Numbered from the stretch's first letter, positions 1,191-50,217 are shown. The stretch is 64,000 nt of DNA from a bacterium (GCA_023267635.1 JAHFMX010000001.1:83165-147164), one strand, 5' to 3'. The notes: generated from the sequence alone by a model not told the origin. A program made the numbers and translations.

Positions 1191-1209
1191 ACGTTATACT
1201 TAACCACAT

Positions 1210-1500
1210 ATGAAATTCCCATTTTTTTGGAAGAAGGAAAACATACAAGGCGATGATCTTATTATTAAAGAACAAGCTGAACAAACACTTCTAGGACGCA
1301 ATCATGATCTCGATGCCATACGAGAGCGATTAGAAAGAGAGTACCCGAGCGCAGAAAGCGCTATTGAGGATTATAGAAAGGAGTATGTAACTGAAGCACA
1401 GTTGGCGTTACGATTTTCACCTGAGGAAATTGACACCATTCATGCTGAACGAGATGGGAGGGATAGAGAAGACGCTGAGATTCCTTCAGGATATTTATAA
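1210..1500 (+). CDS. hypothetical acidic protein
   Basis: 96-aa ORF; TATACT at 1195-1200 nine nt upstream of ATG; stop overlaps next start as TAATG. Confidence 0.4.
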   Translation: MKFPFFWKKENIQGDDLIIKEQAEQTLLGRNHDLDAIRERLEREYPSAESAIEDYRKEYVTEAQLALRFSPEEIDTIHAERDGRDREDAEIPSGYL

Positions 1501-1826
1501 TGAAATTTATTTTAAAACATTTTACGCTTCGTTATTATTTGAGGCATGTACGAAAGCAAAATAAACACATGCAACATGTGCATGCTATTGCGTTTGCTGG
1601 GATTATTACGGCTCTTATTGCGGGTGTTATTTTGTACGCCGACTACGGATTTTGGCACGAAACATACGTTGCAGAAGATGCCCTTGTTGTTACTGATGCA
1701 AACATACCGGAGGAGTCTTCCGGATACTCCTGGGGGAGCTTTTTTGCAGAAGCTAAAGAGCGTTTTGCAAACATTGGAACAACAAGTGCAAGCTTCTTAG
1801 AAGGTAAAGAAACATATAAAAAGTAG
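1500..1826 (+). CDS. hypothetical membrane protein
   Basis: 108 aa with one TM segment AIAFAGIITALIAGVILY; translationally coupled TAATG with upstream ORF. Confidence 0.4.
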   Translation: MKFILKHFTLRYYLRHVRKQNKHMQHVHAIAFAGIITALIAGVILYADYGFWHETYVAEDALVVTDANIPEESSGYSWGSFFAEAKERFANIGTTSASFLEGKETYKK

Positions 1827-1857
1827 CATAAAAGCTATAGCAAAAGAGTTCACTTTA

Positions 1858-1866
1858 TGGTATACT
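1858..1866 (+). promoter_or_regulatory. extended -10 element TGGTATACT upstream of gyrA
   Basis: TGnTATACT 25 nt upstream of the gyrA ATG; no clear -35. Confidence 0.35.
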
Positions 1867-1891
1867 AAAAAGATAATAATCCCTTATATCT

Positions 1892-4378
1892 ATGGCAAAA
1901 AAGACTGTTCCACAAGGAGAAAATAACGATGCTGGAGGTGCTTCTGTAGCAGTTCACAACGCCCATCTTAAGGTAAATATTTCTCGTGAAATGAAGGACG
2001 CGTATTTGGATTACGCGATGTCTGTTATTACTTCTCGTGCGCTTCCTGATGCTCGAGATGGAATGAAACCAGTGCACCGTCGAATTCTTTTTGCGATGAA
2101 CAACATGGGTCTTACTGCGGGAGCAAAGTTCCGAAAGTCTGCAACAGTGGTTGGAGAAGTACTCGGTAACTATCACCCTCACGGAGACGCATCAGTGTAT
2201 GATGCGATGGTAAAAACAGCGCAGGATTTTTCGTATCGTTATCCACTTGTTATGGGGCAGGGAAACTTTGGATCAATCGACGGTGACGGAGCAGCTGCTA
2301 TGCGTTATACGGAAGCAAAAATGTCGAAGCTTTCTATGGAAATGATGCGTGATATCGAAAAGGACACGGTAAAGATGGTTCCTAACTATGACGGTACAAA
2401 GCGTGAACCTCATGTTCTTCCAACATCTGTTCCGAACCTTCTTCTTAACGGAACACTTGGTATTGCCGTTGGTATGGCAACAAACATTCCTCCACACAAC
2501 TTGGGAGAGGTGATTGATGCTACGGCGCATTTAATTGATAACCCACACGCAACGACTGAAGAGTTGTGTGACTACGTTAAGGGGCCTGACTTTCCACTTG
2601 GTGGAATTGCATTCGGTCAGTCTGATATTCGTGCAGCGTACGCAACAGGGCGTGGCGGAGTTGTTGTTCGAGGAGAAGCGGAAATTACAGAAACAAAGAA
2701 TGGAATGTTCCAAATCATTATTACTTCTATTCCATACCGTGTACTGAAGAGTAATCTCATTGAAAACATTGCAGATCTTGTGCGTGAAAAGAAAATTGAA
2801 GGCATCAAAGGACTTCGTGATGAATCAACAAAAGACATTCGCGTGGTGATTGATTTGAAGAGTGGTGCTCAGCCACAGAAGGTTCTTAACTATTTATATA
2901 AACACACAGAACTAGAATCAACATTCCATTACAACGTTGTTGCGCTTGTTGATGGTGTACCTCAAACGCTTGCTCTTAAAGGAGCACTTGAAGCGTTTAT
3001 TGGTCACCGAAAGGAAGTTGTTCGTCGTCGTACTGAATTTGATCTTAAACGTGCACTTGAACGTGAACACATCTTACTTGGTCTTAAAAAGGCGCTTGAT
3101 CACATTGATGAAATCATCAAAACAATTCGTGCTTCAAAGGACACACCTGATGCTCATGCGGCTTTGGTAAAGAAGTTTAAGTTCTCAGATATTCAGGCAA
3201 CTGCGATTCTTGAAATGAAGCTTCAGCGATTGGCTGGACTTGAACGAAAGAAGATTGAGGATGACTTGAAAGCAGTTCAGGCTCTCATTGCAGAGCTTAA
3301 GGCAATTCTTGCATCAGAAAAGAAAATGCTCGCAATTATCAAAGGTGAACTTACTGATATCAAAGATAAATACGGAGACGAACGCCGCACAAAGATTGTA
3401 AAGCATCGCGCAAAGGAATTTAATCCAGAAGATTTGATTGCAGATCAGGAACAAGTACTTGTGTATACATCAGGAGGATATGTAAAGCGTACAGACCCTG
3501 CAGAATTTAGAACACAGAAACGTGGTGGTGTTGGAGTTGTTGACATGAACACGAAGGAAGAAGACTTCGTAACGATGTCACTTACTACCTCAACTCACAG
3601 TGATCTTCTCTTCTTTACTGACAAAGGAAAGGCATATCAGATCAAGATGTATGATCTTCCAGAAGGGAAGCGTGCCACTCGTGGGAAATCAATCATGAAC
3701 TTCCTACAGCTAGTGGACGGTGAAAAGGTAACGTCTATCCTTCCAATGTCAAAAGATGTGAAGGCACTCGTTGGGCAGTCTCTTATGATGATTACAAAAG
3801 AAGGAACCGTGAAGAAGTCATCTGCTGAAAGCTTTAAGGATGTGCGAAGAAATGGTTTGATTGCGATTCGTCTAGAGGACAAGGATGAATTACTTGCTGC
3901 ACTTTTTGTAACGGGTGAGGACAATGTGATGCTCACAACTCAGAATGGTCAGTCAATTCGTTTCAATCACACAGATGTTCGAGAAATGGGTCGTACTGCA
4001 GGAGGGGTGATTGGTATGAAGTTAGACAAGGGAGATATCATTGTTGCTGCAGATAAGATTCCAGAAGGAACTCGTGGAGCTGAACTTCTTGTGGTAACTG
4101 CAAATGGATATGGAAAGAAAACAAAACTTTCTGAATACAAAACACAGAAGCGTGGAGGTTCAGGTATCAAGACAGTGAAGGTAACAACAAAAACTGGTCC
4201 GCTTATTGTGGCTCGTGTGGTAACTGCAGAGCATGAAGAACTTCTTGCGGTATCAAAAGATTCACAAGTGATCAGAACAGAAGTAAGTTCTATCCCAACG
4301 CTTGGACGAGACACACAGGGTGTGCGAGTGATGAAGTTGCGGGAGGGGGATAGTGTTGCAACATTTAACTTGCTTTAA
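1892..4378 (+). CDS. gyrA: DNA gyrase subunit A
   Basis: 828 aa; N-terminal [28 protein letters not shown] with the catalytic Tyr region; C-terminal beta-pinwheel repeats. Confidence 0.95.
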
Positions 4379-5136: not shown

Positions 5137-5213
5137 GTTAGCTTCTTAGAGTTTGCTGGTTGATAGCCTATCCACTACTTACTGTTCATCACCTGCTGCT
5201 ATACTGTACCCAT

Positions 5214-5735
5214 ATGTTTTTAACCCCAGACCATCTTGTTCGTGAATTATATTTGAAGCCAGGAGATCGCGTGGCTGATATTGGTTGTGGAACAGGAGCG
5301 TACACTATTGCGCTTGCTCGTGAAGTAGGAGATATGGGTCAGGTGTACGCGGTGGACGTACACAAGGATCAGTTACATACCCTCGCAAGCACACTTGAAC
5401 GCCAGAAACTTTTGAATGTTGAAATTCTCTGGGCGGATATCGAAAAAGGAATTCCTATTGATGCATATAGTTTGGATGCAGTTGTGCTCTCTAATGTTTT
5501 GTTCCAATTACAAGATATTGATGCAGCGCTTACGTATGTTGCAAAGATTGTAAAACCAGGAGGAATGCTGCTTGTAGTGGATTGGTCTAAGTCACACGCT
5601 GGTATTGGACCACATAGCTCTCACGTAGTAACAGAAGAACAAGCAGAAACATTTGTTCTGAAACATGGATTTCGTATGCAGAAAAGATTACCTGCAGGGG
5701 ACTATCACTACGCATTTATTTCAGTATCTGCGTAG
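5214..5735 (+). CDS. class I SAM-dependent methyltransferase
   Basis: Motif VADIGCGTGAYTIALA (GxGxG SAM-binding); start set at ATG 5214 because TATACT at 5200-5205 lies 8 nt upstream; the ORF track extends to 5160. Confidence 0.7.
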   Translation: MFLTPDHLVRELYLKPGDRVADIGCGTGAYTIALAREVGDMGQVYAVDVHKDQLHTLASTLERQKLLNVEILWADIEKGIPIDAYSLDAVVLSNVLFQLQDIDAALTYVAKIVKPGGMLLVVDWSKSHAGIGPHSSHVVTEEQAETFVLKHGFRMQKRLPAGDYHYAFISVSA

Positions 5736-5822
5736 TATCTGGGCTGGAAAATAAAGGCGGGAAGTAAGGGTTGAGGTTTTTGTCCACTACCTAGTACCCA
5801 TTACCTGCTATATACTGTTCTC

Positions 5823-7121
5823 ATGTTACGCACAATACTTCTCGGCGCTGGAATTTTCGCAGCTCTACTTTCTATATTAATATTCTCTGGGAAAATTCCT
5901 CTAGGGAACGCAAAAGATAAACCAGTAGGAGAGGTTGTCTTATGGGGAACTGTTGATGAGGTGCAAATGAATACGATAGTGCAGGAATTTAATCCGCAGG
6001 CCAAAACGTACCAAGTACGGTATACGGAGATTCCAGCAACACAGTTTAGTCAGAAGTTACTCGAAGCTCTAGCTAATGGAACAGGACCAGACATGATTAT
6101 TGTTCCTCATCAGCTTATCCTAGCGAATCAGACACGACTCTACCCATTTCCAATTGGCTCGCTATCAGAGAAGAAATATAAAGATCTCTATGTAGATGGG
6201 GCTTCGGTGTTGTTTACTCCATCAGGGGCGCTCGCACTTCCTGTGTCTATTGATCCGTTGGTTCTTTTCTATAACCGTACATTATTCTCTAAACATGGCA
6301 TAGTTAATCCTCCGCAGTATTGGGATGAGTTAGTAAACATGGTTCCACTCCTTACTATTCTTGATAGTCGTGGTCAATTTGTAGAATCCGCTATTTCTCT
6401 TGGTGCTCCAAATACACCGTATGCAAAAGAAATTCTTATGGCAACTGTGCAACAGCTTGGACAAACTCCAGTACTTAAGCAGTATCAGGAAGATGGTCAG
6501 TCGTATCTAAGTGTCACTGCGAATACTCCAGTTACGCAGGACGGTGAAGTGTTTCCACTAGCAACGGCTGCGCGATTCTTTACCCAGTTCTCAGATCCAA
6601 CAAAAAATACCTACACATGGAGTCAGTACGGAGGGAATGCAGAGGATCAGTTTGTGGCAGAAAAAGTTGCTATGTATATCGGACGAGCAAGTGAACTTGC
6701 GACACTTCGTGCACGTAATCCAAAGGCAGATGTAGAGATGTCATATCTTCCTCAGACGAGGGGGTACAATACATTTTCAACAACAGGACAAATGTATGCA
6801 ATCGGCACACTTAAGACAAGTAAGAATCTTGTAACGTCACTCACTATTGAGGGAGAGTTTGCGGGTGCTGGGGTTTCTCCTGCAATTGCGTCTCTTATGG
6901 GAACTGTTCCAGCACTTCGCGCGTATTCAAGTACTGAAGGCCTGTCTGATGTAATCGCTCGAAGTATGTTGGTCGCAAAACCTTGGTATGATAGTTTCCC
7001 AATCGAATCAGTAACACTCGTCTCTACCATGCTAGCTGACATTATAAGTGGAAGAGCGGGAGCGGCGGATGCGGCGGCGGACTTTGTATCTCGTTTGCAG
7101 GACCTGTATACTCCACTGTAA
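5823..7121 (+). CDS. membrane-anchored extracellular solute-binding-like protein
   Basis: 432 aa; N-terminal TM anchor then periplasmic-binding-protein-like sequence (LWGTVDE..QEFNPQ..); no adjacent permease or ATPase genes; TATACT 6 nt upstream of ATG. Confidence 0.4.
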   Translation: MLRTILLGAGIFAALLSILIFSGKIPLGNAKDKPVGEVVLWGTVDEVQMNTIVQEFNPQAKTYQVRYTEIPATQFSQKLLEALANGTGPDMIIVPHQLILANQTRLYPFPIGSLSEKKYKDLYVDGASVLFTPSGALALPVSIDPLVLFYNRTLFSKHGIVNPPQYWDELVNMVPLLTILDSRGQFVESAISLGAPNTPYAKEILMATVQQLGQTPVLKQYQEDGQSYLSVTANTPVTQDGEVFPLATAARFFTQFSDPTKNTYTWSQYGGNAEDQFVAEKVAMYIGRASELATLRARNPKADVEMSYLPQTRGYNTFSTTGQMYAIGTLKTSKNLVTSLTIEGEFAGAGVSPAIASLMGTVPALRAYSSTEGLSDVIARSMLVAKPWYDSFPIESVTLVSTMLADIISGRAGAADAAADFVSRLQDLYTPL

Positions 7122-8914: not shown

Positions 8915-9129
8915 TTTTTCCGACATGTATAAATACAACTTACATCAACGTAAGTAGGCGTGCGTGGAGCGTCACTGAACTTAATTGTAGTCAGCAGAAG
9001 TCTACCTTTTAGAAAATTAGGGTTTAATTACCAGTATTGACAGAATCTTTTTGGTAACGTAGTGTAGAAAATGAAGGTACCGATACATGTCGGTTACTGC
9101 ATTCTTTTTCAACTCATTGGAGGTATTTT

Positions 9130-9888
9130 ATGACCACGAAAAGTGACCCAACGACAGGTGAAAAGACGTTTATGGAGTCTGTTCAGCAGGGTGGGCAACG
9201 CCCACCTAAAAGAGGAGTGGAGGACCATGAGGCAAGAAGGCCTCAAAGGCCAGCTCCTCCTCCCCATGGAACCGCGAGTGGTGGGCAACCTCCAACGCCA
9301 CCACCAGCTGTTCCTGGTGGTGGCGACAACGGAAAGTCTGGAGGTGATGAAGGTGGATCAGGGGGCGGGGTTAAGAAATGGCTGGAGGACAACAAGTTGG
9401 CCACGCTCTTTCTCGGACTTCTTCTGTTGACTACTTTTACTGCAATCGGCAATCAGATATGGGTGTACTATACCCGGCAAAGCATCCAATTGGTCAAGGA
9501 GCTCAACGACGCAGAGTCGTCTCCTGCCAAGGTTGCCGTGCCGCGTGTGGTTCCTGCCAAAATCCCTGTGCCGCCTGCAGTGCAATGTCAGTCGCCTGCA
9601 CCCGGAGCTACGCTTTTCTGGCAGCCACTATCTCTTTCACCAGGAAGCTGTGTGGAGCTTGCTCCACCAGCAAACGGAAGTATGTATTTTTGGGCGACAT
9701 TTTCTGCTGTCCCGAAATCCATGGAAGGCGTGTCTGAGATCAAGAGCGCGCGCGACGCAGGTGGACAGGACATTGTTCCAACAGGCGTTTGCCAAGGATC
9801 CAATTGTCAGGATTTCATCCGCAATCACTTGGGGCAAAGCTTGTTTGTGCGACAAGTTTCCAACCAAAACTTACATATCAAACTTTAA
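9130..9888 (+). CDS. Pro/Gly-rich membrane-anchored surface protein
   Basis: GGAGG 8 nt upstream; N-terminal PPPP/GGxGG low complexity, one TM (LATLFLGLLLLTTFTAIG), C-terminal Cys-containing domain; region GC about 55%. Confidence 0.5.
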   Translation: MTTKSDPTTGEKTFMESVQQGGQRPPKRGVEDHEARRPQRPAPPPHGTASGGQPPTPPPAVPGGGDNGKSGGDEGGSGGGVKKWLEDNKLATLFLGLLLLTTFTAIGNQIWVYYTRQSIQLVKELNDAESSPAKVAVPRVVPAKIPVPPAVQCQSPAPGATLFWQPLSLSPGSCVELAPPANGSMYFWATFSAVPKSMEGVSEIKSARDAGGQDIVPTGVCQGSNCQDFIRNHLGQSLFVRQVSNQNLHIKL

Positions 9889-11227: not shown

Positions 11228-11255
11228 AAAGCTAGTGTGCTAGAATGAGCAACAT

Positions 11256-12647
11256 ATGAACGGAACTGACATGAATGCAATGGAAAAAATCGTATCGCTT
11301 TGTAAGCGTCGAGGTTTTATTTTCCCTGGGTCTGAAATCTATGGAGGACTTGCTGGAACATTTGATTACGGGCCTCTTGGTGTATTACTCAAGAATAATA
11401 TTGAAAATAGTTGGTGGGATCATTTTGTTACCAATCGAGATGATATGTATGGAATTGACGCTGCTATTTTGATGAATCCACGAGCGTGGGAAGCAAGCGG
11501 GCACGTTGGAGGATTTTCTGATCCATTGGTTGAAGATCTTGAAACAAAGAAAAGATACCGAGCTGATCACCTTCTTGAAGCAAGTGGACACAGCGCCCTT
11601 GGCTTGAATCTTGAGGAACTTAATTCAAAAATCCAGGCACTAGCATTAGCTGGAAAGTTAGAAAATTCAGAGGGAACGGTGTTAAAGAAAATTGGCGAGG
11701 TACGACAGTTTAATATGATGTTTAAGACCCAAGTTGGAGCTACTGAAGATCCAACATCAATTTCCTATTTACGCCCAGAAACAGCAGGTGGTATGTTTGT
11801 TAATTTTAAAAATGTTGTTGATAGTTTCCACCCGAAACTTCCATTTGGTCTCGCTCAGATTGGAAAAGCATTCCGCAATGAAATTGCTCCTCGTGATTTT
11901 ATTTTTCGTCTACGAGAACTTGGACAGATGGAGATCGAATATTTTTGTCACCCTTCTAAATGGGAAGAGAGATTTGAACATCTTCGCACCGAGTTTCTTA
12001 CATGGATGATTTCTATTGGATTACCAGAATCAAAAATACATGAAGTGGAAATTGGGGATGGGGACAGAGCTCACTATAGTAAACGCACAATTGATTTTGA
12101 ATTTGATTTTCCTATGGGGCAGAAAGAACTTGCGGGGCTAGCTTACCGTACAGACTTTGATTTGAAGGCGCATAGCGAATACAGCAAAACTGACCTTTCT
12201 TATTTTGATGAAGAAACAAAAGAGCGATTTATTCCACACTGTATTGAACCATCTATTGGAATTGAGAGAACATTTCTTGCTGTTCTTTCGTCTGCGTATA
12301 ATGAAGAAGAGATTGACGGAGAAATTAGAACAGTGCTTCGTTTTAATCCAAAAGTTGCTCCAATCCAGATCGCGGTGCTCCCACTTTCGAAAAAAGAAGA
12401 ACTTTCAGTTCCTGCAGAAAAAATTGCTAAAGATCTTAAAAAGATTGCACGAGTGTCATATGATGAAACGCAGTCAATTGGAAAGCGATATCGTCGTCAG
12501 GATGAAATTGGTACACCATTTTGCGTGACCGTTGACTTCGATACGCTCACTGATAACGCCGTAACAGTCCGTGATCGCGATACGATGGAACAAGTCCGTA
12601 TCCCAGTGGCTGATTTAGCTTCTTATTTTTCAGATAAACTTGTTTAA
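11256..12647 (+). CDS. glyQS: glycine--tRNA ligase (dimeric class II form)
   Basis: 463 aa; KRRGFIFPGSEIYGGLAGTFDYGPLG and class II motifs; extended -10 TGCTAGAAT 9 nt upstream of ATG. Confidence 0.9.
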   Translation: MNGTDMNAMEKIVSLCKRRGFIFPGSEIYGGLAGTFDYGPLGVLLKNNIENSWWDHFVTNRDDMYGIDAAILMNPRAWEASGHVGGFSDPLVEDLETKKRYRADHLLEASGHSALGLNLEELNSKIQALALAGKLENSEGTVLKKIGEVRQFNMMFKTQVGATEDPTSISYLRPETAGGMFVNFKNVVDSFHPKLPFGLAQIGKAFRNEIAPRDFIFRLRELGQMEIEYFCHPSKWEERFEHLRTEFLTWMISIGLPESKIHEVEIGDGDRAHYSKRTIDFEFDFPMGQKELAGLAYRTDFDLKAHSEYSKTDLSYFDEETKERFIPHCIEPSIGIERTFLAVLSSAYNEEEIDGEIRTVLRFNPKVAPIQIAVLPLSKKEELSVPAEKIAKDLKKIARVSYDETQSIGKRYRRQDEIGTPFCVTVDFDTLTDNAVTVRDRDTMEQVRIPVADLASYFSDKLV

Positions 12648-13132: not shown

Positions 13133-13218
13133 CTGAAATAAAAATACTGCACGCACTGTGCGGTGTTTTTATTTGTATTCCCCAGAGCATTTTTCTAAAA
13201 CAGGTTATACTTTAAAGC

Positions 13219-14274
13219 ATGGATAAAAAACTTCGTGTTGGTATTAATGGATTTGGTCGCATTGGTCGCGCTTTCTTTAAAGTTGCTGCACTTAGGGACG
13301 ATATGGAAGTTGTAGCAGTAAATGATTTAGGGGACATTCACAATCTCGCGTATCTTCTTCAGTACGACACAGTCTACAAAGTTGCGCCATATGACGTGCA
13401 AGCAGAGATTCATGACACCGAGCAATACCTCACAACTGGAGGTTCATTTGAATCACGTGTGCGAGTGTTTCAGGAAAAAGACCCTGCCGCTATTCCATGG
13501 GGAACACTTGATGTAGATGTTGTAGTTGAATCAACTGGACTCTTTACAGCGTATGACAAAGCTTCAGCTCATCTGAAAGGTGGAGCTAAAGCAGTTGTTA
13601 TTTCTGCTCCAGCAAAAGCAGGAGAAGATGAAAGTGTTAAAGGGGAAACAATTCTTCTTGGAGTGAATGAAGAAAAATTTGGAACATGCTCTGTTACTTC
13701 AAATGCGTCATGTACAACAAATGCTTCTTCTCCAATCATTGCGATTCTTGATGAGGCACTTGGTATTGAGAAAGCTATTTTAAATACTGTGCACTCTTAC
13801 ACTGCATCACAATCAATCGTGGACGGTCCAAATAAAAAAGATTTTCGTGAAGGTCGTGCAGCAGCACAGAATATTGTCCCATCATCCACGGGGGCGGCAA
13901 TTGCAGTAACAAAAGCATTCACATCGTTAGTTGGACTCTTCGACGGTATTTCAATCCGTGTACCAACTCCAGCAGGCTCGATTGCAGATATTACCTTTAT
14001 CTCAAAACGACCCACAACAGCTGAAGAAGTTAATAAGATATTACAAGATGCTGCAGCAACTGAGCGATGGTCTTCTATTTTCCAAGCTACAGAAGAGGAA
14101 CTTGTTTCAAGTGATATCATCGGACTTCCTTTTGCTTCTATTGCAGATCTTAAAATGACTCGCGTGGTTGGTGGTAACCTTGTTAAGGTTCTTGCGTGGT
14201 ATGACAATGAAATGGGGTATACGCATACTTTAGTAGAACATGTGCATCGTGTAGGGCAAAAGTTGGTCAAATAG
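13219..14274 (+). CDS. gap: glyceraldehyde-3-phosphate dehydrogenase
   Basis: RVGINGFGRIGRAFF N-terminus, SNASCTTN active-site region; TATACT 7 nt before ATG. Confidence 0.9.
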   Translation: MDKKLRVGINGFGRIGRAFFKVAALRDDMEVVAVNDLGDIHNLAYLLQYDTVYKVAPYDVQAEIHDTEQYLTTGGSFESRVRVFQEKDPAAIPWGTLDVDVVVESTGLFTAYDKASAHLKGGAKAVVISAPAKAGEDESVKGETILLGVNEEKFGTCSVTSNASCTTNASSPIIAILDEALGIEKAILNTVHSYTASQSIVDGPNKKDFREGRAAAQNIVPSSTGAAIAVTKAFTSLVGLFDGISIRVPTPAGSIADITFISKRPTTAEEVNKILQDAAATERWSSIFQATEEELVSSDIIGLPFASIADLKMTRVVGGNLVKVLAWYDNEMGYTHTLVEHVHRVGQKLVK

Positions 14275-14396: not shown

Positions 14397-14417
14397 TAGC
14401 CTGCTATACTATTTCAT

Positions 14418-14885
14418 ATGACAACTATCTATTTGGCTACAGATCATGCGGGCTATGAATTAAAAGAAGCAATTAAAGCGTGCCTTGAAACAACCGAGAA
14501 TTACGAAGTCTATGACTGTGGGGCGCTCACTCTAGAGCCAGGGGATAACTATCCAGAGTATATGGCTCGTGCGGCAGAGAAGGTGCAGTACGATTCGATG
14601 CATGATCCATCGGTCGCTATTATTTTTGGAGGTTCGGGAGTAGGGGAAGCTATTGTTGCGAATCGTTATGCTCATGTGCGCGCTGTCGTCTACGCTGGAG
14701 GACCACTCGATGTCATCAAGGTATCACGTGAACATAATGATACAAATGTGCTTTCTTTAGGTGCTCGTTTTGTTTCAGGAAGTGAAGCTAAACAAGCGGT
14801 AGATCTTTTTCTTACGACGCTCTTCTCTCATGATGAACGACATGCTGATCGAGTAATTCAGATCGACGAGGTAACAAGTAAGTAG
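14418..14885 (+). CDS. rpiB: ribose-5-phosphate isomerase B
   Basis: 155 aa; MTTIYLATDHAGYELKEAI is typical of the RpiB/LacAB family; TATACT 7 nt before ATG. Confidence 0.85.
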   Translation: MTTIYLATDHAGYELKEAIKACLETTENYEVYDCGALTLEPGDNYPEYMARAAEKVQYDSMHDPSVAIIFGGSGVGEAIVANRYAHVRAVVYAGGPLDVIKVSREHNDTNVLSLGARFVSGSEAKQAVDLFLTTLFSHDERHADRVIQIDEVTSK

Positions 14886-16590: not shown

Positions 16591-16660
16591 AACAGTGTAG
16601 TGCACATTTTCTGTGAACTAGACGCTCTCGTAAGAGCACCTCACACTGTATACTGTAGGC

Positions 16661-17527
16661 ATGCATTCTCTTACTGATGTTGAAGTTCAAGCGCTCACAC
16701 TTCGTGCAGAGGATATACGTGAAAGTATCGTAAAGATGCTTGTTGAAGCGGGTTCAGGTCATACAGCTGGTCCGCTCGGTATGGCAGATGTTTTTACTGC
16801 GCTTTATTTTAGAATACTTAACCATAATCCGCGTCATCCAGACTGGATTCAGCGTGACCGCGTAATTCTTTCAAATGGACATATTGTTCCTGTGCTCTAT
16901 GCAACTATGGCTCACGCTGGATATTTTTCAGTGTCAGAACTTAAAACGTTACGAAGATTCGGGTCACGTCTGCAAGGGCATCCACATCGAGAAAGTCTAC
17001 CAGGACTTGAAACAACCTCAGGCCCTCTTGGGTGTGGACTTTCTCAAGCAATTGGTATGGCGCTCATGGATCGCCTCGAAGGACACAAGCCAAATCGTTA
17101 TTTCTATTGTTTGATGAGTGACGGAGAATTAGACGAAGGACAAAATTGGGAATCATTGCTTCTTCTTAACAAATACAAGTTAACAAAAGTAATTCCTATT
17201 ATTGATCGCAATACTATTCAAATTGATGGGTACACAGAAGATGTGCTCCCACTGGAATCTCTTAAGGATAAATTAGAGAGTTTTAATTTTCATGTGATAG
17301 AAATTGACGGTCATGATTTTAGAGATATTATGAGAGCTGTTGGAGCTGCTAAAAATTCATTGGATAAACCAACCGTAATCATTGCACACACCATCCCTGG
17401 AAAAGGGGTTACAGCATTTGAAGGTGATTTTAGGTGGCACGGAAAAACTCCGAATGAAGAAGAAGCAAAGAAAGCTTTGAAAGAACTTCGTACATTTAAG
17501 GGGAAGGTACTACACGGAGAAGCTTAA
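16661..17527 (+). CDS. transketolase, N-terminal (TPP-binding) subunit
   Basis: 288 aa; GSGHTAGPLGMADVF, GHPH motifs; TATACT 6 nt before ATG. Confidence 0.85.
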   Translation: MHSLTDVEVQALTLRAEDIRESIVKMLVEAGSGHTAGPLGMADVFTALYFRILNHNPRHPDWIQRDRVILSNGHIVPVLYATMAHAGYFSVSELKTLRRFGSRLQGHPHRESLPGLETTSGPLGCGLSQAIGMALMDRLEGHKPNRYFYCLMSDGELDEGQNWESLLLLNKYKLTKVIPIIDRNTIQIDGYTEDVLPLESLKDKLESFNFHVIEIDGHDFRDIMRAVGAAKNSLDKPTVIIAHTIPGKGVTAFEGDFRWHGKTPNEEEAKKALKELRTFKGKVLHGEA

Positions 17528-18560: not shown

Positions 18561-19562
18561 TTAAAGTATTACTAGTTTGTAACTCTCAGGGGCTTTTTGT
18601 AAAAATTCCTCAATTGCTTTCTCGGAAAGAAGCCCTTCTTGAGCCCCGATATGCTGCACAACATTCATACTGTTAATTGGCGCGCGGTTGATTGCGTAAA
18701 TAGGATCATACCCTTTAACAAGATATGCAATGAAGGTTGAGAAAAAAGCGTCTCCTGCACCAGTGCGCTCAAGCGGCGGCGCAATGTCTGGGTAGATTGG
18801 CATATTGAAATAGGTATGATCATATTTCATATAGGCGCCGAGAGGTCCGTCGGTAATAATAACAGTCGACGGGCCGAGTGCTTCTAATCCATCCAGTAGT
18901 TTTTTTATATCATGTTCATCACTTTCAAGTAAGACTTGGGCTTCTTCTTTATTAACACATACAACATCTGTTTCTTTGTAGAGCTCTGTATTCTTTCCCA
19001 TCTTGAGTTGAAATGTTCCTGGCTGAAACGCTACGCGTACATCTGGATTATTTTTTACATACGCTGTCAGCTCGTCGTGGAAGCTTTCAGTGTGAGCACC
19101 TAGCGAAGAGATGTACAACCAAGTAGGGGAACCAATTGCTGGAAGGGAATAATCAAACGCTTCGTGTTTTACAAGAATGGTTCGATCATCACCATACCAT
19201 AGTACGTAGTGATAGTTAGTTTTTTTACCAGCTTGCAGTTGTATGAAATCGCTCAGCACACCTTCTTTAACAAGCGTTTCTCTACAGAGATTTCCATAAG
19301 CGTCCTCACCTAACCATGTGAGAAGGGAAGAGTGTACACCTAAGCGCGCAGCTGAAACCGCAGCGTTGGCGCTGTTTCCGACACCAGCAATAAGAGTAGC
19401 GCTTTCGTAAGGAACTTTTGCGCCGTATGGAATACAAAGTTCAGGACCATTAGCTGTTTCTTGCACATGTCCCACAGAAAGCTTGATGAAAGGTTCAATA
19501 ACTGTATCACCAACCGCGAGGAATGTTCCTGTATTTGTTGCACTATTTTCCTTATCTGTCAT
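18561..19562 (-). CDS. PfkB-family carbohydrate kinase (ribokinase-like)
   Basis: 333 aa; C-terminal TGAGDAFFSTFIAYL signature; N-terminal GG-type sugar-binding region. Confidence 0.8.
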   Translation of the reverse strand: MTDKENSATNTGTFLAVGDTVIEPFIKLSVGHVQETANGPELCIPYGAKVPYESATLIAGVGNSANAAVSAARLGVHSSLLTWLGEDAYGNLCRETLVKEGVLSDFIQLQAGKKTNYHYVLWYGDDRTILVKHEAFDYSLPAIGSPTWLYISSLGAHTESFHDELTAYVKNNPDVRVAFQPGTFQLKMGKNTELYKETDVVCVNKEEAQVLLESDEHDIKKLLDGLEALGPSTVIITDGPLGAYMKYDHTYFNMPIYPDIAPPLERTGAGDAFFSTFIAYLVKGYDPIYAINRAPINSMNVVQHIGAQEGLLSEKAIEEFLQKAPESYKLVIL

Positions 19563-19590
19563 GAACGTATGGTATCACGAACTTCTTGTT

Positions 19591-19705: not shown

Positions 19706-19729
19706 CACACTCTGGTATACTGTATTGAT

Positions 19730-22706: not shown

Positions 22707-22784
22707 GACAGTTCCTGTAAAGTTCAACTGCCCGCATACTACTTGTTTTAGTGGGAGAAGTCTACTTTGTGATAGTATGGGGAC

Positions 22785-24696: not shown

Positions 24697-24708
24697 GACA
24701 TCTTAACT

Positions 24709-26783: not shown

Positions 26784-26812
26784 TTGCACATTCTTTTCCC
26801 TAGGCGTATACT
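26784..26812 (+). promoter_or_regulatory. sigma70-like promoter TTGCAC-17-TATACT
   Basis: -35 at 26784-26789, -10 at 26807-26812, 6 nt before the ATG at 26819. Confidence 0.45.
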
Positions 26813-26818
26813 TTGGGC

Positions 26819-27411: not shown

Positions 27412-27440
27412 TTGAAAAAGGTTGTCAAATATGCTATAAT
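27412..27440 (+). promoter_or_regulatory. consensus-like sigma70 promoter TTGAAA-17-TATAAT for uvrA
   Basis: -35 at 27412-27417, 17-nt spacer, -10 at 27435-27440; the ORF-track start at 27412 falls inside the promoter. Confidence 0.55.
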
Positions 27441-27459
27441 GCGGAAATTGTCCTCACCC

Positions 27460-30599: not shown

Positions 30600-30741
30600 C
30601 TTACTTACCTTCTTTGTAAAGAACTTTTATTATGACCATTTTGATTTGGTCTCGATTCGCTCACTGTAGTGCTAGTTTGCCGCTTTAAGTTAACTCGGTT
30701 TACCAGTTGCAAAGGCGAATATTTATTGTACAATAGATTCA

Positions 30742-37105: not shown

Positions 37106-37138
37106 CATTATGGGTTTTGGTTCTGATATACTAAACCC

Positions 37139-38116
37139 ATGTTACACGTATCTCGCAGTCTTCCTGATATCGCCGTTCTCCGTGGAGGAAAAGAGGATTT
37201 TGGTGTGTCTCTTCAAGAAGGACAAGAGGTACTGAAATCACTCTCACAGATTGGCTATAAACCACTCGATGTGTTGGTTGATAAAGAGGGGAATTGGACA
37301 ACGCAAGGAAAGCCAACGGACGCGCACGCTGTGTTTACCCGTGCTCACACGGTGGTGGATGCAACACGAGACGCTCATGCCTCACACATTAAACTCGCAA
37401 AGAAAATGGGGATCACATTATTTTTCTCAAAAGGAAATGATGTACACATGGATAGGGAAGATATGTATCGATTGCTTCGCATGCAAGGATTTAAAGTTCC
37501 TGATACAACAGTTGTGCGAGCGAAGGCGTCACTTGAGGATTCTTTCTTTCGTAATCTCTGGTCAACATATCACACACCGCTCATGATTCGTCCGCTTGAG
37601 CGCAGTAGTACTGAACAGTCAAAACTCGTCACTGCATTTCCAGATTTTGAAAACACGGTACGAGACTTTCATAGTAAGGGGATAGATGTACATGTGCTTA
37701 CATATAAAAAAGCGCCAACATCATCCATAGCTGTACTCCCTAACTTTCGTGGAGAGGAACTCTACACACCTCTTTGGGTTGAAACATTTGGAAGCCTAAA
37801 TGCAATTCCAAATAGAAGTCATCCAATGCGCGCTCACGCAAACGCACCTGACTACAGAAAGGAACAAATGAAAGATATTGCTACAAAAGTATACAAGGCG
37901 CTTAATCTTTCTTCCCCAGCCTGTATCGATGTTGTTCCGCACGGAGATGGATATATGATTGTGAACGTTGAACGTACTCCGTCTATCGGTAAAGAGGGAC
38001 GCTTCATGCAGTCGCTCCATTCAACAGGAATTGATGTTGGGCAATATGTGCATTCTCAGATTCAGCGCGAACTGGAAAGCGTTGCACCTCTACAACCATA
38101 TGAGTACGCGAGATAG
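37139..38116 (+). CDS. ddl: D-alanine--D-alanine ligase-like ATP-grasp enzyme
   Basis: 325 aa; IAVLRGGKEDFGVSLQEGQEVLKSL..VLVDKEGNW matches the Ddl N-terminal pattern AVLxGGxSxExxVSLxS..V..D..G.W; TGATATACT 9 nt before ATG. Confidence 0.5.
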   Translation: MLHVSRSLPDIAVLRGGKEDFGVSLQEGQEVLKSLSQIGYKPLDVLVDKEGNWTTQGKPTDAHAVFTRAHTVVDATRDAHASHIKLAKKMGITLFFSKGNDVHMDREDMYRLLRMQGFKVPDTTVVRAKASLEDSFFRNLWSTYHTPLMIRPLERSSTEQSKLVTAFPDFENTVRDFHSKGIDVHVLTYKKAPTSSIAVLPNFRGEELYTPLWVETFGSLNAIPNRSHPMRAHANAPDYRKEQMKDIATKVYKALNLSSPACIDVVPHGDGYMIVNVERTPSIGKEGRFMQSLHSTGIDVGQYVHSQIQRELESVAPLQPYEYAR

Positions 38117-41704: not shown

Positions 41705-42874
41705 TTATCTGGTGTCTTTCATTGGGAATACGTACGCTACGCTCGCGAGGATTGCACATCCTAGAATGACGAACATTAATTGTGGACGAGCGATAAGGAA
41801 TGGTCCGATAAGAATTCCAAGCGCGCCGACAACAATAGTTGCAAAGCTAAGTGTGTTTGAGAAAAGCGCAGTAAGGGAGGCATCCTCTGGTCCAACTTTT
41901 TTAAAGTAGTATGCAAATGCCATTGTTTCTACACACGCAGCTCCAACACGTGAAAGGAGAAGAATGATAACCCAGATAACAGGATTAGCTGTGGTTACAA
42001 TAACACATAGGAAGACAGTAAGCGAGAGGATGAGTAATCCTCCAATAAGGAGCTCTTTTTCCCCATAGCGTTTATCTGCAAGGTAGCCGAGCTCATACGG
42101 AAGCACAACAAGAGGAATCAAAGCAAAAGGAAGTATGGCAGTAAGGTATACCGTAAGAGGAATACCAAGTGTTGCGAGGTAGATTGGTGAATAAATAACC
42201 ATAACAGCGTAGAAACACTGCACCATAAATTCTGCAATAAGGGCAGCGCGAATATTTTTATTTTTCCAAGCAACACGGAATGCTTGGTACATATTAATTG
42301 TTTCGTACGCCGGCTCTTCTATGTGGTACAGGTAGGTTCGTACAAGGAGTATGAATGGAACCAGCATACATGACGCAATAATATAGAGCGTTGAAAACGA
42401 AGCAAAGGAAAGAATACTTCCTCCTATAATTGGTGAGATGAGAATACCAATGTTGAGAAGCGTAAGGAAGAGTCCTCTAATTGAACCAGTTTCTGCATGT
42501 TTTGAGAAGCTTTCAATAAATACATTAAGACATACATAGAGAAGTGTTTGAAGAAGGAAGTGAGTTATAAAGAATGCTGCAATAAGAAGTGGGTTCTTAC
42601 TGATTCCGAAGGCGATAGTAATAACGATTTCCGCAATAACTAATCCGATAGTAAATCCATAGGTATGGAACTTCCTCATATATTTTGCCACTGACATTGA
42701 TCCGATGAGAGCTGCGATGGCACCAAACATGTACAACATGCTCACGGTAGATGATCCAAAGTATTGATGAAGATACGACGAAGTCGCATACAGAGGAATT
42801 CCGTAATGAAGGGCGTAGAGGAGGGTAAGAAGATAACTTACTATGAGAAGTTTATTCTTAATGATGGCGTGCAT
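41705..42874 (-). CDS. MFS transporter
   Basis: 389 aa, about 12 TM helices. Confidence 0.75.
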   Translation of the reverse strand: MHAIIKNKLLIVSYLLTLLYALHYGIPLYATSSYLHQYFGSSTVSMLYMFGAIAALIGSMSVAKYMRKFHTYGFTIGLVIAEIVITIAFGISKNPLLIAAFFITHFLLQTLLYVCLNVFIESFSKHAETGSIRGLFLTLLNIGILISPIIGGSILSFASFSTLYIIASCMLVPFILLVRTYLYHIEEPAYETINMYQAFRVAWKNKNIRAALIAEFMVQCFYAVMVIYSPIYLATLGIPLTVYLTAILPFALIPLVVLPYELGYLADKRYGEKELLIGGLLILSLTVFLCVIVTTANPVIWVIILLLSRVGAACVETMAFAYYFKKVGPEDASLTALFSNTLSFATIVVGALGILIGPFLIARPQLMFVILGCAILASVAYVFPMKDTR

Positions 42875-42981
42875 ATATGGAGATAGTATATCAGTTCACG
42901 TTGGGCTTTCTAGTGGGTAACAATGGCAGAAGGTCGACGCCGTAGGCGTCGACCTTCTTGTTCCATTTGTTGTTTTAGAAA

Positions 42982-46644: not shown

Positions 46645-46869
46645 TTAGCGAGCAAGAAGCGGGTACGCAAGTGCGAGAACGAAAGCCACCGCAATAATAA
46701 CCGTTAAACGGTGTAGTGACTTTTCCGCTCCACGCTTTTCAAGCGCAGCTCCTGATCCTCCGTCAGCACCAAAAGCGCCTGACGCATCGGTGTTAGCTCG
46801 TTGGATAAGAACGAGTGCAGTGAGGAGAATAGCTAGCGTTATTTGCACAATAGATAGCATGTGAACCAT
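46645..46869 (-). CDS. secG: preprotein translocase subunit SecG
   Basis: 74 aa, two TM helices with Gly-rich loop (LTALVLIQRANTDASGAFGADGGSG..RG.EK.L..T). Confidence 0.7.
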   Translation of the reverse strand: MVHMLSIVQITLAILLTALVLIQRANTDASGAFGADGGSGAALEKRGAEKSLHRLTVIIAVAFVLALAYPLLAR

Positions 46870-47052
46870 GTTTCCAGTATATCATAAGGGGTATAGGCCT
46901 GTAAATATGGGGATAGTTGTCCCTTCGTGGTGTGTTGAGAGCTAAATTTCTAATTTTCAATTTAAAATTTCTAATCAAATCTAAATGTTTCAAAATTAAT
47001 ACATGTAGACATTGAAAATTCAATAAAAATTTATAATTAGAAATTGAAAATT

Positions 47053-47075
47053 CTTTGCAACTACTGTTGCAAAGC
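47053..47075 (-). terminator. hairpin overlapping the dnaE stop
   Basis: CTTTGCAAC-TACT-GTTGCAAAG perfect 9-bp stem, followed on the minus strand by a T-rich repeat region. Confidence 0.4.
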
Positions 47076-50000
47076 TTTAATTTCATCAACAACAATAGTC
47101 TTTTCTCCGTTTCGAGTAGCAACTTTTCCACGTACCACAACAGGGAGGTCAAGAATAATTGCTGATTTGTAGCGCTTATAGGTTTCTGGGAAAACGGCCA
47201 CCTCAATCGACCCTCGATAATCACGCAAGGTAACAAGCGCCATGTGGTCTCCTTTTTTAGTTTTTGTTATTTTGCTTTTCTCGATAATAACAGCGAGTGA
47301 AACTTCTTTTCCATCCGGTGTATCGTGATGTACTTTATCAATATCAATTCCTCGAGCCTCAATTTTTTCACGCCATGGATCAAGAGGGAAGCCTGACACG
47401 AAGAGTCCAAGTAATTCTTTTTCCCATGCAAGCTTTTGTTCCTGGGTTACGAGTGGTGCACGCTTCATGGTAAATGAAGTTGTGTCTGCTTCTCCAAAGA
47501 GTGAGTTTTGGTGTCGGTTATCTTTTACTGCGTGTTTATGGAAAGCGAGAATGTTATCCATGTTTGCAAGAACGTCACCACGTTCTGCGAACTCATCAAG
47601 CGCTCCACACATAGTGAGAGCTTCGAGAGATTTTTTGTTAAGGTTCTTGTGAGTGATTCTGTTAATGAAATTTTCAAATGACGTAAATGGTCCTTTTGCT
47701 TTTCTTTCTGCAATGATAGCGTCCGCAATATCAACTCCTAAGTTTTTTACGGTGTAGAGACCGAAACGAATTTCCTCCTTTCCATTTTCATCAGTCACGA
47801 TACTAAACCCACCCTCACTCATGTTGATGTTTGGTGGAAGCACAATAATATTCATACGCTTACACTCGGACACAATTTCAGCAATTTTTTCTACGTCTCC
47901 TGATTCGTTCGTCATAATCGCCGTCATATACGCAACAGGGAAGTTTGCTTTCATGTACGCTGTTTGATAGGCAACACGTCCATAACTCGCAGCATGGGCT
48001 TTGTTAAATCCATAGGCTGCAAACGGTTCAATCAGTGACCAGAGGAGGTCTGCTTTTTTCTGAGACAGTCCATGTTCGAGAAATCCTTTGAAGAGTTTTT
48101 CTTTTTGAGCCGTCATTTCTGCTGGAATTTTCTTACCCATCGCTTTACGTAATTTGTCAGCTTCAAGCCATGAATATCCAGCCAAGTGAATGGCGATAAG
48201 CATCACGTCATCTTGGTATACAATCACGCCAAAGGATTGATCAAGAATTGGTTCAAGACGGGGGTCGAGATATGCGACAAGAGATTGGTCATGCTTTCGT
48301 TTGATGTACTCAGGAATCATTTCAAGTGGTCCAGGACGGTAGAGAGCCACCATAGCGTTAATGTCAAAAATAGTCGAAGGCTTTAGCTCCTTCAAAAATC
48401 GTGTCATACCAGAACCGTTTAATTGGAATAGTCCCATCGTATATCCGTGAGCAAGCATATCGAATGTCTTACTGTCATCAAGTGGAATGGTTTCAATATC
48501 AATAGTGGTGTTGTATCTGACTTGAGCAATTTCAATTGCGTCTCCTAAAATAGTAAGGTTACGAATACCGAGGAAGTCGAATTTAAGTAGTCCTGCATCT
48601 TCAATGGTGTACATGTCGTACTGAGTAATAACCTTGCCCCCCTTAGGGTCTTTTTGTATCGGACTGAATTCCCACAGCGGACGAGGCGAGATAACCGTTC
48701 CAGCGGCATGAACAGAAATGTGTCGCGCACAGCCTTCTACTTTTTGTGCCATGTCTAAAATGATTTGCACATCACGGTCCGTGTCATAGAGTTCTTTCAG
48801 TTCAGGCATTTCAAGGAGCGCTCCAGCAATTGTCACAGGGAAACCTTGTCGTGGCGGAGGAATCATTTTTGAAATACGGTCCCCAACCATGTAAGGAAAC
48901 TTCATTGCACGAGCAACATCCTTCACAGCCCCACGCGCCATCATTGTTCCGAATGTTCCAATCTGTGCAACGTTATCTATTCCATATTTTCTACGCGCGT
49001 AGTCAATAACCTCGTCACGACGAGTATCGGCGTAGTCCATGTCGATATCTGGCGCAGAGGGTCGTTCAGGGTTGAGGAAACGTTCAAACGGCAACTTGTA
49101 TTCAAAGGGGTCAACGATGGTAATACGAAGAAGATAGGTAACAAGAGATCCCGCAACGGATCCACGAATGTTAGTAAGAATTTTATTTTCACGAGCGAAA
49201 CGCAAGAGGTCGTACACCACAAGAAAGTATGGTGAATACCCTTTGTCCGAGATAACTTTAAGCTCATAATCAAGCCTCGTTTTAACTGTCTCTGTAAGCT
49301 CCATGTTACGCACAATAAGTCCCGCATGCGCTAGTTCACGAAGATCTTCATCGTAACTTTTTTTGTATTCAATGTCAGGAAATACCCACGCCCCAAGCGG
49401 TATTTGTAGGGAGCAACTTTTGGCAAGGACAAGTGTGTTTGAAAGAGCGTCAGGGACGTCCTTAAACTGTCCCATACCCGTAGCGACATCTACCATAGTA
49501 AAGTCATCTTTTTGGAACATGTGATTGTACTCATCTTGAGAATGTTCGTCGCCGTGAATAAGGTAGAGTGTTTTATGTGCAGCCTTATCTGCAGCCGATA
49601 AGTAGTGAGTGTTCCACGTTGCGATAAGTGGAGTGTCCGTCTCACGAGCGAGCGCTATTGTTTTGTCGTACATCTCTTTCCCACGTTCCATCGAAACCTG
49701 CGGATTAATTTCTAGGTAAAAATGCTCACCAAAATGTGACGCGTAGAACTCCAGGCGTTTTTTTGCTTCTTCAGGATTAATAACAAGAAGATTAGATACT
49801 TCACCCCACTGACCACCAGAGAGAACCGCAAGACCTTCTTTGTAAGTGATAAGTGTTGCTTCAGTAAGAAGTGGGTCAAGCGGATTTTCTACGTTCACGA
49901 TTGAGGTGATGCGCATGAGATTTTTGTATCCTTGTAGATCTCTTGCGATAAGAACTATTTTAAATCTCCGGTCTTCGTACTTAAGAGAAAATTCTACACC

Positions 50001-50186
50001 GATGATTGGTTTGATTCCTGCGTTCTCACAGCTTTTGTAAAACTCGATAGTTCCATACATATTACTGTAGTCAGTAATAGCTAGAGCAGGCTGACCGAGT
50101 GATGCAGCTTTTTTTACAAGAGGGTCTATTTTCGGGAGGGCTGAGAGTAGAGAGTAGTGACTGTGATTGCGTAGATGGACGAACAT
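47061..50186 (-). CDS. dnaE: DNA polymerase III alpha subunit
   Basis: 1041 aa; N-terminal PHP domain (HLRNHSHYSLL), polymerase core, OB-fold C-terminus. Confidence 0.95.
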   Translation of the reverse strand: MFVHLRNHSHYSLLSALPKIDPLVKKAASLGQPALAITDYSNMYGTIEFYKSCENAGIKPIIGVEFSLKYEDRRFKIVLIARDLQGYKNLMRITSIVNVENPLDPLLTEATLITYKEGLAVLSGGQWGEVSNLLVINPEEAKKRLEFYASHFGEHFYLEINPQVSMERGKEMYDKTIALARETDTPLIATWNTHYLSAADKAAHKTLYLIHGDEHSQDEYNHMFQKDDFTMVDVATGMGQFKDVPDALSNTLVLAKSCSLQIPLGAWVFPDIEYKKSYDEDLRELAHAGLIVRNMELTETVKTRLDYELKVISDKGYSPYFLVVYDLLRFARENKILTNIRGSVAGSLVTYLLRITIVDPFEYKLPFERFLNPERPSAPDIDMDYADTRRDEVIDYARRKYGIDNVAQIGTFGTMMARGAVKDVARAMKFPYMVGDRISKMIPPPRQGFPVTIAGALLEMPELKELYDTDRDVQIILDMAQKVEGCARHISVHAAGTVISPRPLWEFSPIQKDPKGGKVITQYDMYTIEDAGLLKFDFLGIRNLTILGDAIEIAQVRYNTTIDIETIPLDDSKTFDMLAHGYTMGLFQLNGSGMTRFLKELKPSTIFDINAMVALYRPGPLEMIPEYIKRKHDQSLVAYLDPRLEPILDQSFGVIVYQDDVMLIAIHLAGYSWLEADKLRKAMGKKIPAEMTAQKEKLFKGFLEHGLSQKKADLLWSLIEPFAAYGFNKAHAASYGRVAYQTAYMKANFPVAYMTAIMTNESGDVEKIAEIVSECKRMNIIVLPPNINMSEGGFSIVTDENGKEEIRFGLYTVKNLGVDIADAIIAERKAKGPFTSFENFINRITHKNLNKKSLEALTMCGALDEFAERGDVLANMDNILAFHKHAVKDNRHQNSLFGEADTTSFTMKRAPLVTQEQKLAWEKELLGLFVSGFPLDPWREKIEARGIDIDKVHHDTPDGKEVSLAVIIEKSKITKTKKGDHMALVTLRDYRGSIEVAVFPETYKRYKSAIILDLPVVVRGKVATRNGEKTIVVDEIKALQQ

Positions 50187-50217
50187 GGAACTAGTATATC
50201 AGCTGTATACTTAGCGC
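50187..50217. promoter_or_regulatory. 31-bp divergent promoter region with symmetric TATACT boxes for dnaE (minus) and rnhB (plus)
   Basis: AGTATA-tCAGCTG-TATACT: each arm reads TATACT toward its own gene, 6 nt from each ATG. Confidence 0.4.

Follow-up and report, generated by a model that had tools for sequence, protein, structure and literature searches.

Analysis of a 64,000-nucleotide (nt) stretch of bacterial DNA (GCA_023267635.1, JAHFMX010000001.1:83165-147164; referred to as the window, with positions counted from its first nucleotide and (−) marking the minus strand) revealed that a box resembling a promoter −10 element, TATACT or a close variant, directly precedes the ATG start codons of many of its genes. 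From the sequence signatures in the window and in 76 related genomes, we predict with high confidence that the −10 element of the promoter abuts the ATG and hence that these genes are expressed from leaderless mRNAs. Judging by its sequence, the window belongs to an uncultured, ultra-small bacterium of the Patescibacteria (candidate phyla radiation [CPR]), class Paceibacteria. The nearest relatives of its glyceraldehyde-3-phosphate dehydrogenase (GAPDH) in a one-genome-per-species collection were uncultured Patescibacteria of the Paceibacteria/Parcubacteria group (88-55% identity), carrying among them the labels Paceibacterota, Nomurabacteria, and Kaiserbacteria. The window has a G+C content of ~42% and is densely coding, mainly on the plus strand, and an Rfam scan of it detected one tRNA-Trp and no further family.

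Gene counts for the window are based on 59 non-overlapping open reading frames (ORFs). The comparison set consisted of 76 Paceibacteria loci from the 76 related genomes (1.22 Mb), collected via relatives of gap, and four outgroup loci (Bacteroidales and Bacillaceae) processed in the same way were used as controls. A start codon was considered boxed when a hexamer of the form T-A-N-N-N-T, with at most one mismatch to TATAMT, or two if TGn was present, was located 6-10 nt from the ATG.

Boxed start codons in the window

An initial annotation of the window had listed 13 box-ATG pairs, and all 13 were present in the sequence with the geometry reported for them. Seven further sites were recognized, at ATG 525, glyS (11256), pfkB (19562(−)), fba (19730), a gene for an MFS transporter (42874(−)), secG (46869(−)), and tatC (56124), bringing the total to 20 of the 59 ORFs, or about half of the likely transcription units. 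The description of the mRNAs as predominantly leaderless is thus acceptable when transcription units are counted and too broad when genes are counted. The start codon was ATG at all 20 sites, and the box was preceded by a TGn extension at 12 of them.

The commonest spacer between box and start codon was 6 nt (10 cases). It was found (intervals spanning box to ATG) at the solute-binding protein gene (ATG 5823; TATACT, 5811..5825), tktN, encoding the transketolase N-terminal subunit (ATG 16661; TATACT, 16649..16663), the PfkB-family sugar kinase gene (ATG 19562(−); tga-TACCAT, 19560..19574), tgt (ATG 22785; tga-TAGTAT, 22773..22787), a 174-amino-acid (aa) ORF (ATG 26819; TATACT, 26807..26821), the Ddl-like ligase gene (ATG 37139; tga-TATACT, 37127..37141), secG (ATG 46869(−); tga-TATACT, 46867..46881), tatC (ATG 56124; tgc-TAGCAT, 56112..56126), and the divergent genes dnaE (ATG 50186(−)) and rnhB (ATG 50218), each with its own TATACT (50184..50220). 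A spacer of 7 nt separates box and ATG at a Lactamase_B_3 metallo-hydrolase gene (ATG 525; tgg-TAGAAT, 512..527), gap, encoding GAPDH (ATG 13219; TATACT, 13206..13221), rpiB (ATG 14418; tgc-TATACT, 14405..14420), and uvrC (ATG 30742; TACAAT, 30729..30744). Spacers of 8-10 nt occur at six sites, five of which have AT as the two bases ahead of the ATG (ATATG), namely, a 96-aa ORF (ATG 1210; TATACT, 9 nt, 1195..1212), the methyltransferase gene (ATG 5214; tgc-TATACT, 8 nt, 5200..5216), glyS for glycine-tRNA ligase (ATG 11256; tgc-TAGAAT, 9 nt, 11241..11258), fba for class II fructose-bisphosphate aldolase (ATG 19730; tgg-TATACT, 8 nt, 19716..19732), and the MFS transporter gene (ATG 42874(−); tga-TATACT, 10 nt ending in ATAT, 42872..42890); the sixth was rpmF, encoding L32 (ATG 63696; TATAAT, 9 nt, 63681..63698). 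A gene for a 1627-aa repeat protein is a weak candidate (51090..51106; TAATAT, spacer 8 nt, with another TATACT 17 nt upstream).

NCBIfam and Pfam agreed with the names gap, rpiB, tkt, tgt, uvrC, L32, RNase HII, DnaE, solute-binding protein, methyltransferase, and Ddl-like ligase. The boxed ATGs coincided with the N termini of the family models, which began at residue 4 (DnaE PHP), 2 (RpiB), 5 (SecG), 6 (L32), 9 (TatC), and 6 (GAPDH), which marks them as genuine start codons rather than internal methionines. Among downstream ATGs of the unboxed genes, only one marginal case of a box was found (41693, TAAACT).

Positional enrichment of the box

As a word, TATACT was not overrepresented in the window, with 44 copies on both strands versus 55 expected from composition. 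Its placement was nonetheless far from uniform: 11 of the 44 copies lay 5-9 nt ahead of an ATG opening an ORF of at least 80 codons, ranking TATACT first of all 4096 hexamers at this position, while its 59 letter permutations reached 2.1%. Counting TATAMT against a shuffled background, a check proposed in the initial annotation and run here on the window, gave 14 of 59 starts with the motif at 5-10 nt versus a mean of 1.24 in dinucleotide shuffles of the upstream 30-mers; the maximum in 2000 shuffles was five boxes (binomial p ~3e-16 for the observed 14). Conversely, only 17 of the 2205 ATGs in the window had TATAMT at 5-9 nt, and 11 of these 17 were called gene starts, or 13 after the starts at 5214 and 26819 were adopted.

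Promoter features of the box

Across the pooled loci, TGn stood ahead of 137 of the 275 ATG-proximal boxes versus 144 of the 1674 other TATAMT copies (50% versus 8.6%; p = 5e-55), and a weak preference for T was observed at the −35 position (52% versus 31%). The number of boxes rose abruptly from 4 at a spacer of 5 nt to 126 at 6 nt, followed by 47, 53, and 39 at 7, 8, and 9 nt, respectively, and then a background of ~8. This hard 6-nt minimum matches the distance from −10 element to start used by the polymerase, as expected of a promoter and not of a ribosome-binding site. At sigma-70 promoters, the seventh base after the hexamer is the usual start for the polymerase, and a 6-nt spacer puts the A of the ATG there. 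The peak was specific to ATG, since the counts at 6, 7, 8, and 9 nt were only 4/4/0/5 for GTG and 4/2/0/4 for TTG. Leaderless translation needs a 5′-terminal AUG, a requirement that the ATG-only peak fits.

The bases next to the start codon were likewise constrained. A pyrimidine occupied −1 in 85% of the spacer-6 sites, while spacer-8 and spacer-9 sites had A at −2 in 80% and 56%, respectively, with T at −1. A purine is thus always available 7-8 nt past the box, so that transcripts are predicted to start on the ATG or two bases earlier. One-base leaders were apparently avoided, given that a purine occurred at −1 in at most 15% of the spacer-6 sites, and the nearly invariant AT before the ATG at spacers of 8-10 nt points to 2-nt AU leaders as a class of their own.

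From these signatures we infer the following course of initiation. TATACT (TATAAT in most related lineages), usually after TGn, would be the −10 element of a housekeeping promoter of the sigma-70 family; no rpoD gene was found within the window. With a spacer of 6-7 nt, the polymerase, starting 7-8 nt past the hexamer, would take the A of the ATG as the first base of the transcript, and with a spacer of 8-10 nt it would begin on the conserved A two bases earlier, yielding 5′-AUAUG. The ribosome would then bind the 5′-terminal AUG directly, with no Shine-Dalgarno (SD) interaction, because a 5′ untranslated region of 0 or 2 nt would oblige translation to go by the leaderless route.

The position of the boxes relative to neighboring genes and terminators followed the same pattern. 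No box was found at the 13 window genes lying <28 nt behind a same-strand gene, versus 20 of the 46 others (Fisher p = 0.002), and class-wide box rates were 27% for first-type genes versus 12% for internal genes, with off-register controls at ~3%. A GC-rich, terminator-like hairpin, recognizable on both strands (GCGCGAAC/GTTCGCGC plus a T run, 1163..1189), ends 5 nt before the box at 1195, and a 13-bp GC hairpin lies ~30 nt upstream of the MFS box (42890, minus strand). The start codons of dnaE and rnhB are only 31 bp apart, and their boxes stand back to back in this interval (CAT-6 nt-AGTATA-TCAGCTG-TATACT-6 nt-ATG; minus strand 50193-50198, plus strand 50206-50211). Moreover, several genes, among them gyrA, uvrB, uvrA, and a cupin gene, had TGnTATACT or TGnTATAAT 12-32 nt ahead of their starts, distances that are possible for a promoter and not for a ribosome-binding site.

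In a subset of the promoters, a motif, tCCACTA(c/g)TA, was observed 20-22 nt upstream of the −10 box, at ~5172-5177, 5784-5789, and ~42911-42916(−) in the window, at ~3564 and ~9989 in the related locus L002, at ~6169, ~8119, and ~8883 in L004, and at ~5944 in L006. CCACTA occurred in 9 of 50 upstream regions of close-clade promoters versus 0.47 expected. In L004, the promoters of gap, rpe, and tktN have nearly the whole 33-nt upstream sequence in common. CCACTA could be a lineage-specific substitute for the −35 element or the binding site of a regulator.

Conservation of the box across Paceibacteria

The same signal was recovered independently of the window. In the Paceibacteria loci, the top two hexamers at 5-9 nt before ORF-opening ATGs were TATACT and TATAAT, with 15% and 14% of their copies at this position (mean, 1.6%), whereas SD words were the top hexamers at the same position in the four control loci. 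At least two boxed sites were detected in 62 of the 76 loci. TATACT outnumbered TATAAT by 33:1 among the closest relatives and by 11:0 within the window, and more distant lineages had mostly TATAAT.

The box was also retained gene by gene. It was found at the N-terminal ATG of 160 of 278 orthologs of boxed genes versus 16 of 137 orthologs of unboxed genes, including 48 of 70 for gap, 37 of 45 for pfkB, 31 of 59 for tktN, and 11 of 17 for fba, whose geometry was identical in the five closest relatives; the DNA flanking the box was unalignable between orthologs, and the box was nonetheless retained. Transketolase (16661-18518) is encoded in two genes, one for the N-terminal and one for the C-terminal part, with 4 nt between them. 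The first, tktN, is boxed, and tktC has neither a box nor a well-placed SD motif; only 2 of 53 tktC orthologs had a box. This arrangement is consistent with a leaderless tktN and a translationally coupled tktC.

Shine-Dalgarno motifs and internal genes

The statement in the initial annotation that SD sequences are mostly absent was borne out even more strongly than it had been put. When SD 5-mers at −4 to −17 of the called starts were compared with those in a control region at −31 to −45, the pooled Paceibacteria loci exhibited no enrichment, either overall (29 versus 32 in the control region) or for internal genes (6 versus 18), whereas the same procedure gave 13 versus 2 in the control loci. 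A histogram of GGAG-to-start spacers over every in-frame ATG was discarded, as codon periodicity dominated it. About five good SD motifs were found in the window, GGAGGT or AAGGAG at 5-7 nt before the start, namely, at ATG 9130 (9114..9132; TTGGAGGT, 5-6 nt to the ATG), ATG 9901 (AAAGGAG, 7 nt), ATG 24501(−) (AAGGAG, 6 nt), ATG 22497(−) (AAGGAG, 7 nt), and ATG 380(−) (AAGGAG, 7 nt), suggesting that the organism probably keeps an anti-SD sequence and uses it rarely. Neither 16S nor 23S rRNA was detected in the window or the 81 loci by Rfam or by conserved rRNA primers with up to two mismatches. The anti-SD motif CCTCCT was reported to be detectable in only 48% of Parcubacteria, in which bS21 is also often missing (PMC9297842); that study offers no functional explanation for these absences and makes no mention of leaderless mRNAs.

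Where a gene follows closely on another, the box is lacking and, in most cases, so is an SD motif (e.g., the genes at 4381, 7131, 14887, 15916, 20635, 35095, and 58415 in the window). In the 76 related loci, the sequence at −3 to −12 of internal starts was A-rich, with 7-15% G, and T was found at −1 in 52%. Initiation at internal genes is presumably SD independent, proceeding by coupling or through an unstructured, A-rich, G-poor junction.

Leadered genes and start-codon choices

In uvrA, uvrB, gyrA, and a few other genes, the same box lies farther upstream, and judging by this distance their mRNAs would be short-leadered. The initial annotation had cited ATG 27460 (uvrA) among the starts refined by the box, but this gene does not fit a leaderless start: the box of a full promoter, TTGAAA-17 nt-(tgc)TATAAT, ends 19 nt before the ATG (27412..27462 including the ATG, plus strand), and this distance implies a leader of ~12 nt, without an SD motif. 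For gyrA, tgg-TATACT lies 25 nt before ATG 1892 (1861..1894), predicting an A/U-rich leader of ~19 nt with no SD motif, and for uvrB, tgc-TATAAT lies 12 nt before ATG 24709 (24691..24711), predicting a leader of ~5-6 nt. Between the 26819 ORF and uvrA, a perfect 17-bp hairpin (27347-27392; TATACTAAAAACCGACC-agttat-GGTCGGTTTTTAGTATA) was identified that probably terminates transcription in both directions. TATACT occurs within it on either strand with no ATG downstream, illustrating that not every TATACT is a promoter.

The revised start codons proposed earlier at 5214, 26819, and 27460 all appeared reasonable. ATG 26819 is preferable to TTG 26813, as the TTG comes directly after the box and would fall outside the transcript. 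ATG 5214 is preferable to TTG 5160, which is situated upstream of the promoter region; this region closely resembles the one ahead of the next gene (5823), and a box was also present at the only ortholog identified for this methyltransferase gene. ATG 27460 is preferable to TTG 27412, being the first ATG past the full −35/−10 promoter, with the conserved UvrA sequence beginning downstream. For the gene at 21811-22545(−), ATG 22497 is likely a better start than 22545, given the AAGGAG (CCAAGGAGAA) 7 nt upstream and a 228-aa product matching the gene call on an ENA metagenome contig. Two ORFs are probably not genes, one at 12990-13190(−) that overlaps tRNA-Trp (13062-13133) and one at 10922-11227(+) whose TTG start sits in a terminator-like hairpin (CACCCTCgaaaGAGGGTG).

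Alternative explanations

Several points weigh against reading the boxes as promoters of leaderless mRNAs. The transcription start sites were placed by promoter geometry, and the starts in the related loci were called crudely, as the longest ORF, so that class-wide percentages are approximate. A scan of positions 1-20000 for canonical −35/−10 pairs found 42 versus 40.4 expected, with no enrichment over shuffles, which means that the promoters would be −10 dominated, resting almost wholly on the −10 region. Where the spacer measures 8-10 nt, the mRNA probably carries a 2-nt AU leader and so may not be leaderless in the strict sense. In addition, for some boxed genes the preceding gene on the same strand ends only 28-90 nt away and no terminator is evident between them, and leadered read-through transcripts may therefore coexist with the leaderless ones. 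Carried further, this last observation supports a rival account that accepts the box as a real promoter and regards leaderless transcripts as a minor species, with longer read-through or upstream-initiated mRNAs dominating and the boxes being internal or secondary in a compact genome; the 12% of tightly packed internal genes in the relatives that are boxed, inside the 3′ end of the upstream gene, point in the same direction. We consider this account unlikely, as the boxed genes have no SD or other recognizable ribosome-binding signal to serve a leadered transcript, the exclusive use of ATG and the pyrimidine at −1 argue for selection on the ATG as a 5′ end, and an upstream start could not be accommodated at the divergent pairs dnaE/rnhB, pfkB/fba, and 525/378 or at the sites preceded by terminators.

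TATACT might instead act after transcription, as an AT-rich, non-SD translation signal in leadered mRNAs, comparable to the Bacteroidetes motif or a site for ribosomal protein S1. The lack of SD enrichment in the clade, the A/T-rich upstream regions, and a distance from the ATG at which ribosome-binding sites usually lie are all compatible with such a role, but a translation signal would hardly match the sigma-70 −10 consensus with its TGn and weak −35 T, or show the 6-nt minimum and the downstream purine that reflect polymerase geometry. Nor would it be found in TGnTATACT 12-32 nt upstream of other genes or immediately behind terminators, and a ribosome-binding site should also occur at the internal operon genes, none of which (0/13 in the window) is boxed. 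This explanation therefore appears very improbable. As for chance, that is, the composition of an AT-rich genome combined with a favorable selection of cases, the unremarkable window-wide frequency of TATACT is in its favor, but the shuffle, permutation, and all-hexamer tests, the sharp positional profile, and the replication of the pattern in 76 other genomes together with its absence from the control loci refute it, leaving it next to no probability.

Intergenic repeats and a repeat protein

A family of AT-rich inverted repeats, with units such as AATTTTCAATTTCTAATTTTCAATTT and AAATTGAAAATTAGAAATTGAAAATT, occupies many intergenic spacers. Copies were located at 14299-14398, 40138-40208, 46945-47053, 56008-56108, 57446-57481/57867-57902, 61840-61951, and 63150-63190/63574-63614. 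Two of them flank genes for PF05635 "23S rRNA-intervening sequence protein" (57487-57855 and 63190-63555), with arms ~385 nt apart, and the remaining copies are hairpins without an ORF; the repeats look like hairpin elements of the intervening-sequence type scattered outside rRNA. Several are situated just upstream of the predicted leaderless promoters of rpiB, secG, tatC, and rpmF and might serve there as terminators or insulators. The gene for the 1627-aa protein (51104-55987) contains eleven 51-nt tandem repeats (53543-54352) and 129-nt repeats (54624-55548) matching LVIVD repeats; in this region the GC skew is reversed, and the G+C content (46%) is above that of the surroundings.

Comparison with known systems and implications

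A promoter abutting the start codon is a layout well known in other bacteria and apparently not previously described for Paceibacteria. In the literature searched, which for the large surveys comprised the main text, leaderless genes or −10 boxes in connection with Patescibacteria, CPR, or Saccharibacteria gave incidental mentions only, and leaderless genes with Parcubacteria or TATAAT with Patescibacteria gave no match; a comparative study of non-SD initiation does not cover Patescibacteria groups.

According to the main text of the GeneMarkS-2 study, group C genomes have a Pribnow box 6-8(-10) nt before the first genes in operons and 25-50% leaderless transcripts, and they are typical of Actinobacteria (Mycobacterium tuberculosis, Streptomyces, and Corynebacterium) and Deinococcus-Thermus (D. 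deserti); Paceibacteria are not named in that text (PMC6028130). The window resembles group C in that the −10 motif is sharply localized before first genes (20 of 46 non-internal genes; peak at 6-9 nt) and far less frequent at genes inside operons (0 of 13 window genes; 12% versus 27% class-wide). Unlike in group C, where other genes use SD, SD motifs were unenriched here, the only group C feature tested that was absent, and the genome is AT-rich (42% GC) instead of GC-rich. The −10 consensus of mycobacteria is the degenerate TANNNT, whereas the full TGnTATACT or TGnTATAAT is found here.

The boxes also resemble extended −10 promoters of sigma-70/sigma-A, with TG one base upstream of the hexamer at half of the sites, a weak or absent −35 element, and a predicted start at a purine that follows a pyrimidine and lies 7-8 nt past the hexamer. 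They differ from the usual form in the preference for C at the fifth hexamer position in the lineage of the window and in the subset with CCACTA 20-22 nt upstream in place of TTGACA. Like the SD-poor bacteria of group B (Bacteroidetes), as outlined in PMC6028130 and PMC5397173, the clade has little or no SD enrichment and A-rich, G-poor sequence before its starts. The group B motif, as described there, is found ahead of every gene, even within operons, which excludes a promoter role; the motif studied here, by contrast, avoids internal genes and has the features of a promoter. The combination of many predicted leaderless first genes with weak SD use is shared with archaeal group D (Haloferax and Sulfolobus). 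In archaea, the TATA box precedes the ATG by ~22-26 nt; the bacterial −10 element here precedes it by 6-9 nt, and the positional profile showed nothing at 20-30 nt.

In CPR genomes, start codons will be placed wrongly by gene finders built on the assumption of SD sites, as exemplified by 5160 versus 5214, 26813 versus 26819, 27412 versus 27460, and 22545 versus 22497, and the box offers a simple, easily checked criterion for assigning start codons and operon limits across thousands of genomes of uncultured organisms. TGnTATACT-N6-ATG would also be a minimal expression signal usable in future genetic tools for CPR organisms. More tentatively, and with somewhat less than even confidence, we propose that Paceibacteria (Parcubacteria) as a class have largely given up SD pairing, starting first genes on leaderless or AUAUG mRNAs and downstream genes at SD-less, A-rich junctions. 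If so, the loss of SD pairing would be the missing functional explanation for the undetectable CCUCCU in about half of Parcubacteria 16S rRNAs and the frequent absence of bS21 (PMC9297842), and a bacterial lineage would have an initiation regime like that of haloarchaea. For the CPR, with their reduced ribosomes and with part of the Parcubacteria having no recognizable anti-SD sequence, promoters built for leaderless mRNAs, together with unenriched SD motifs, would give a concrete, testable account of how translation starts.

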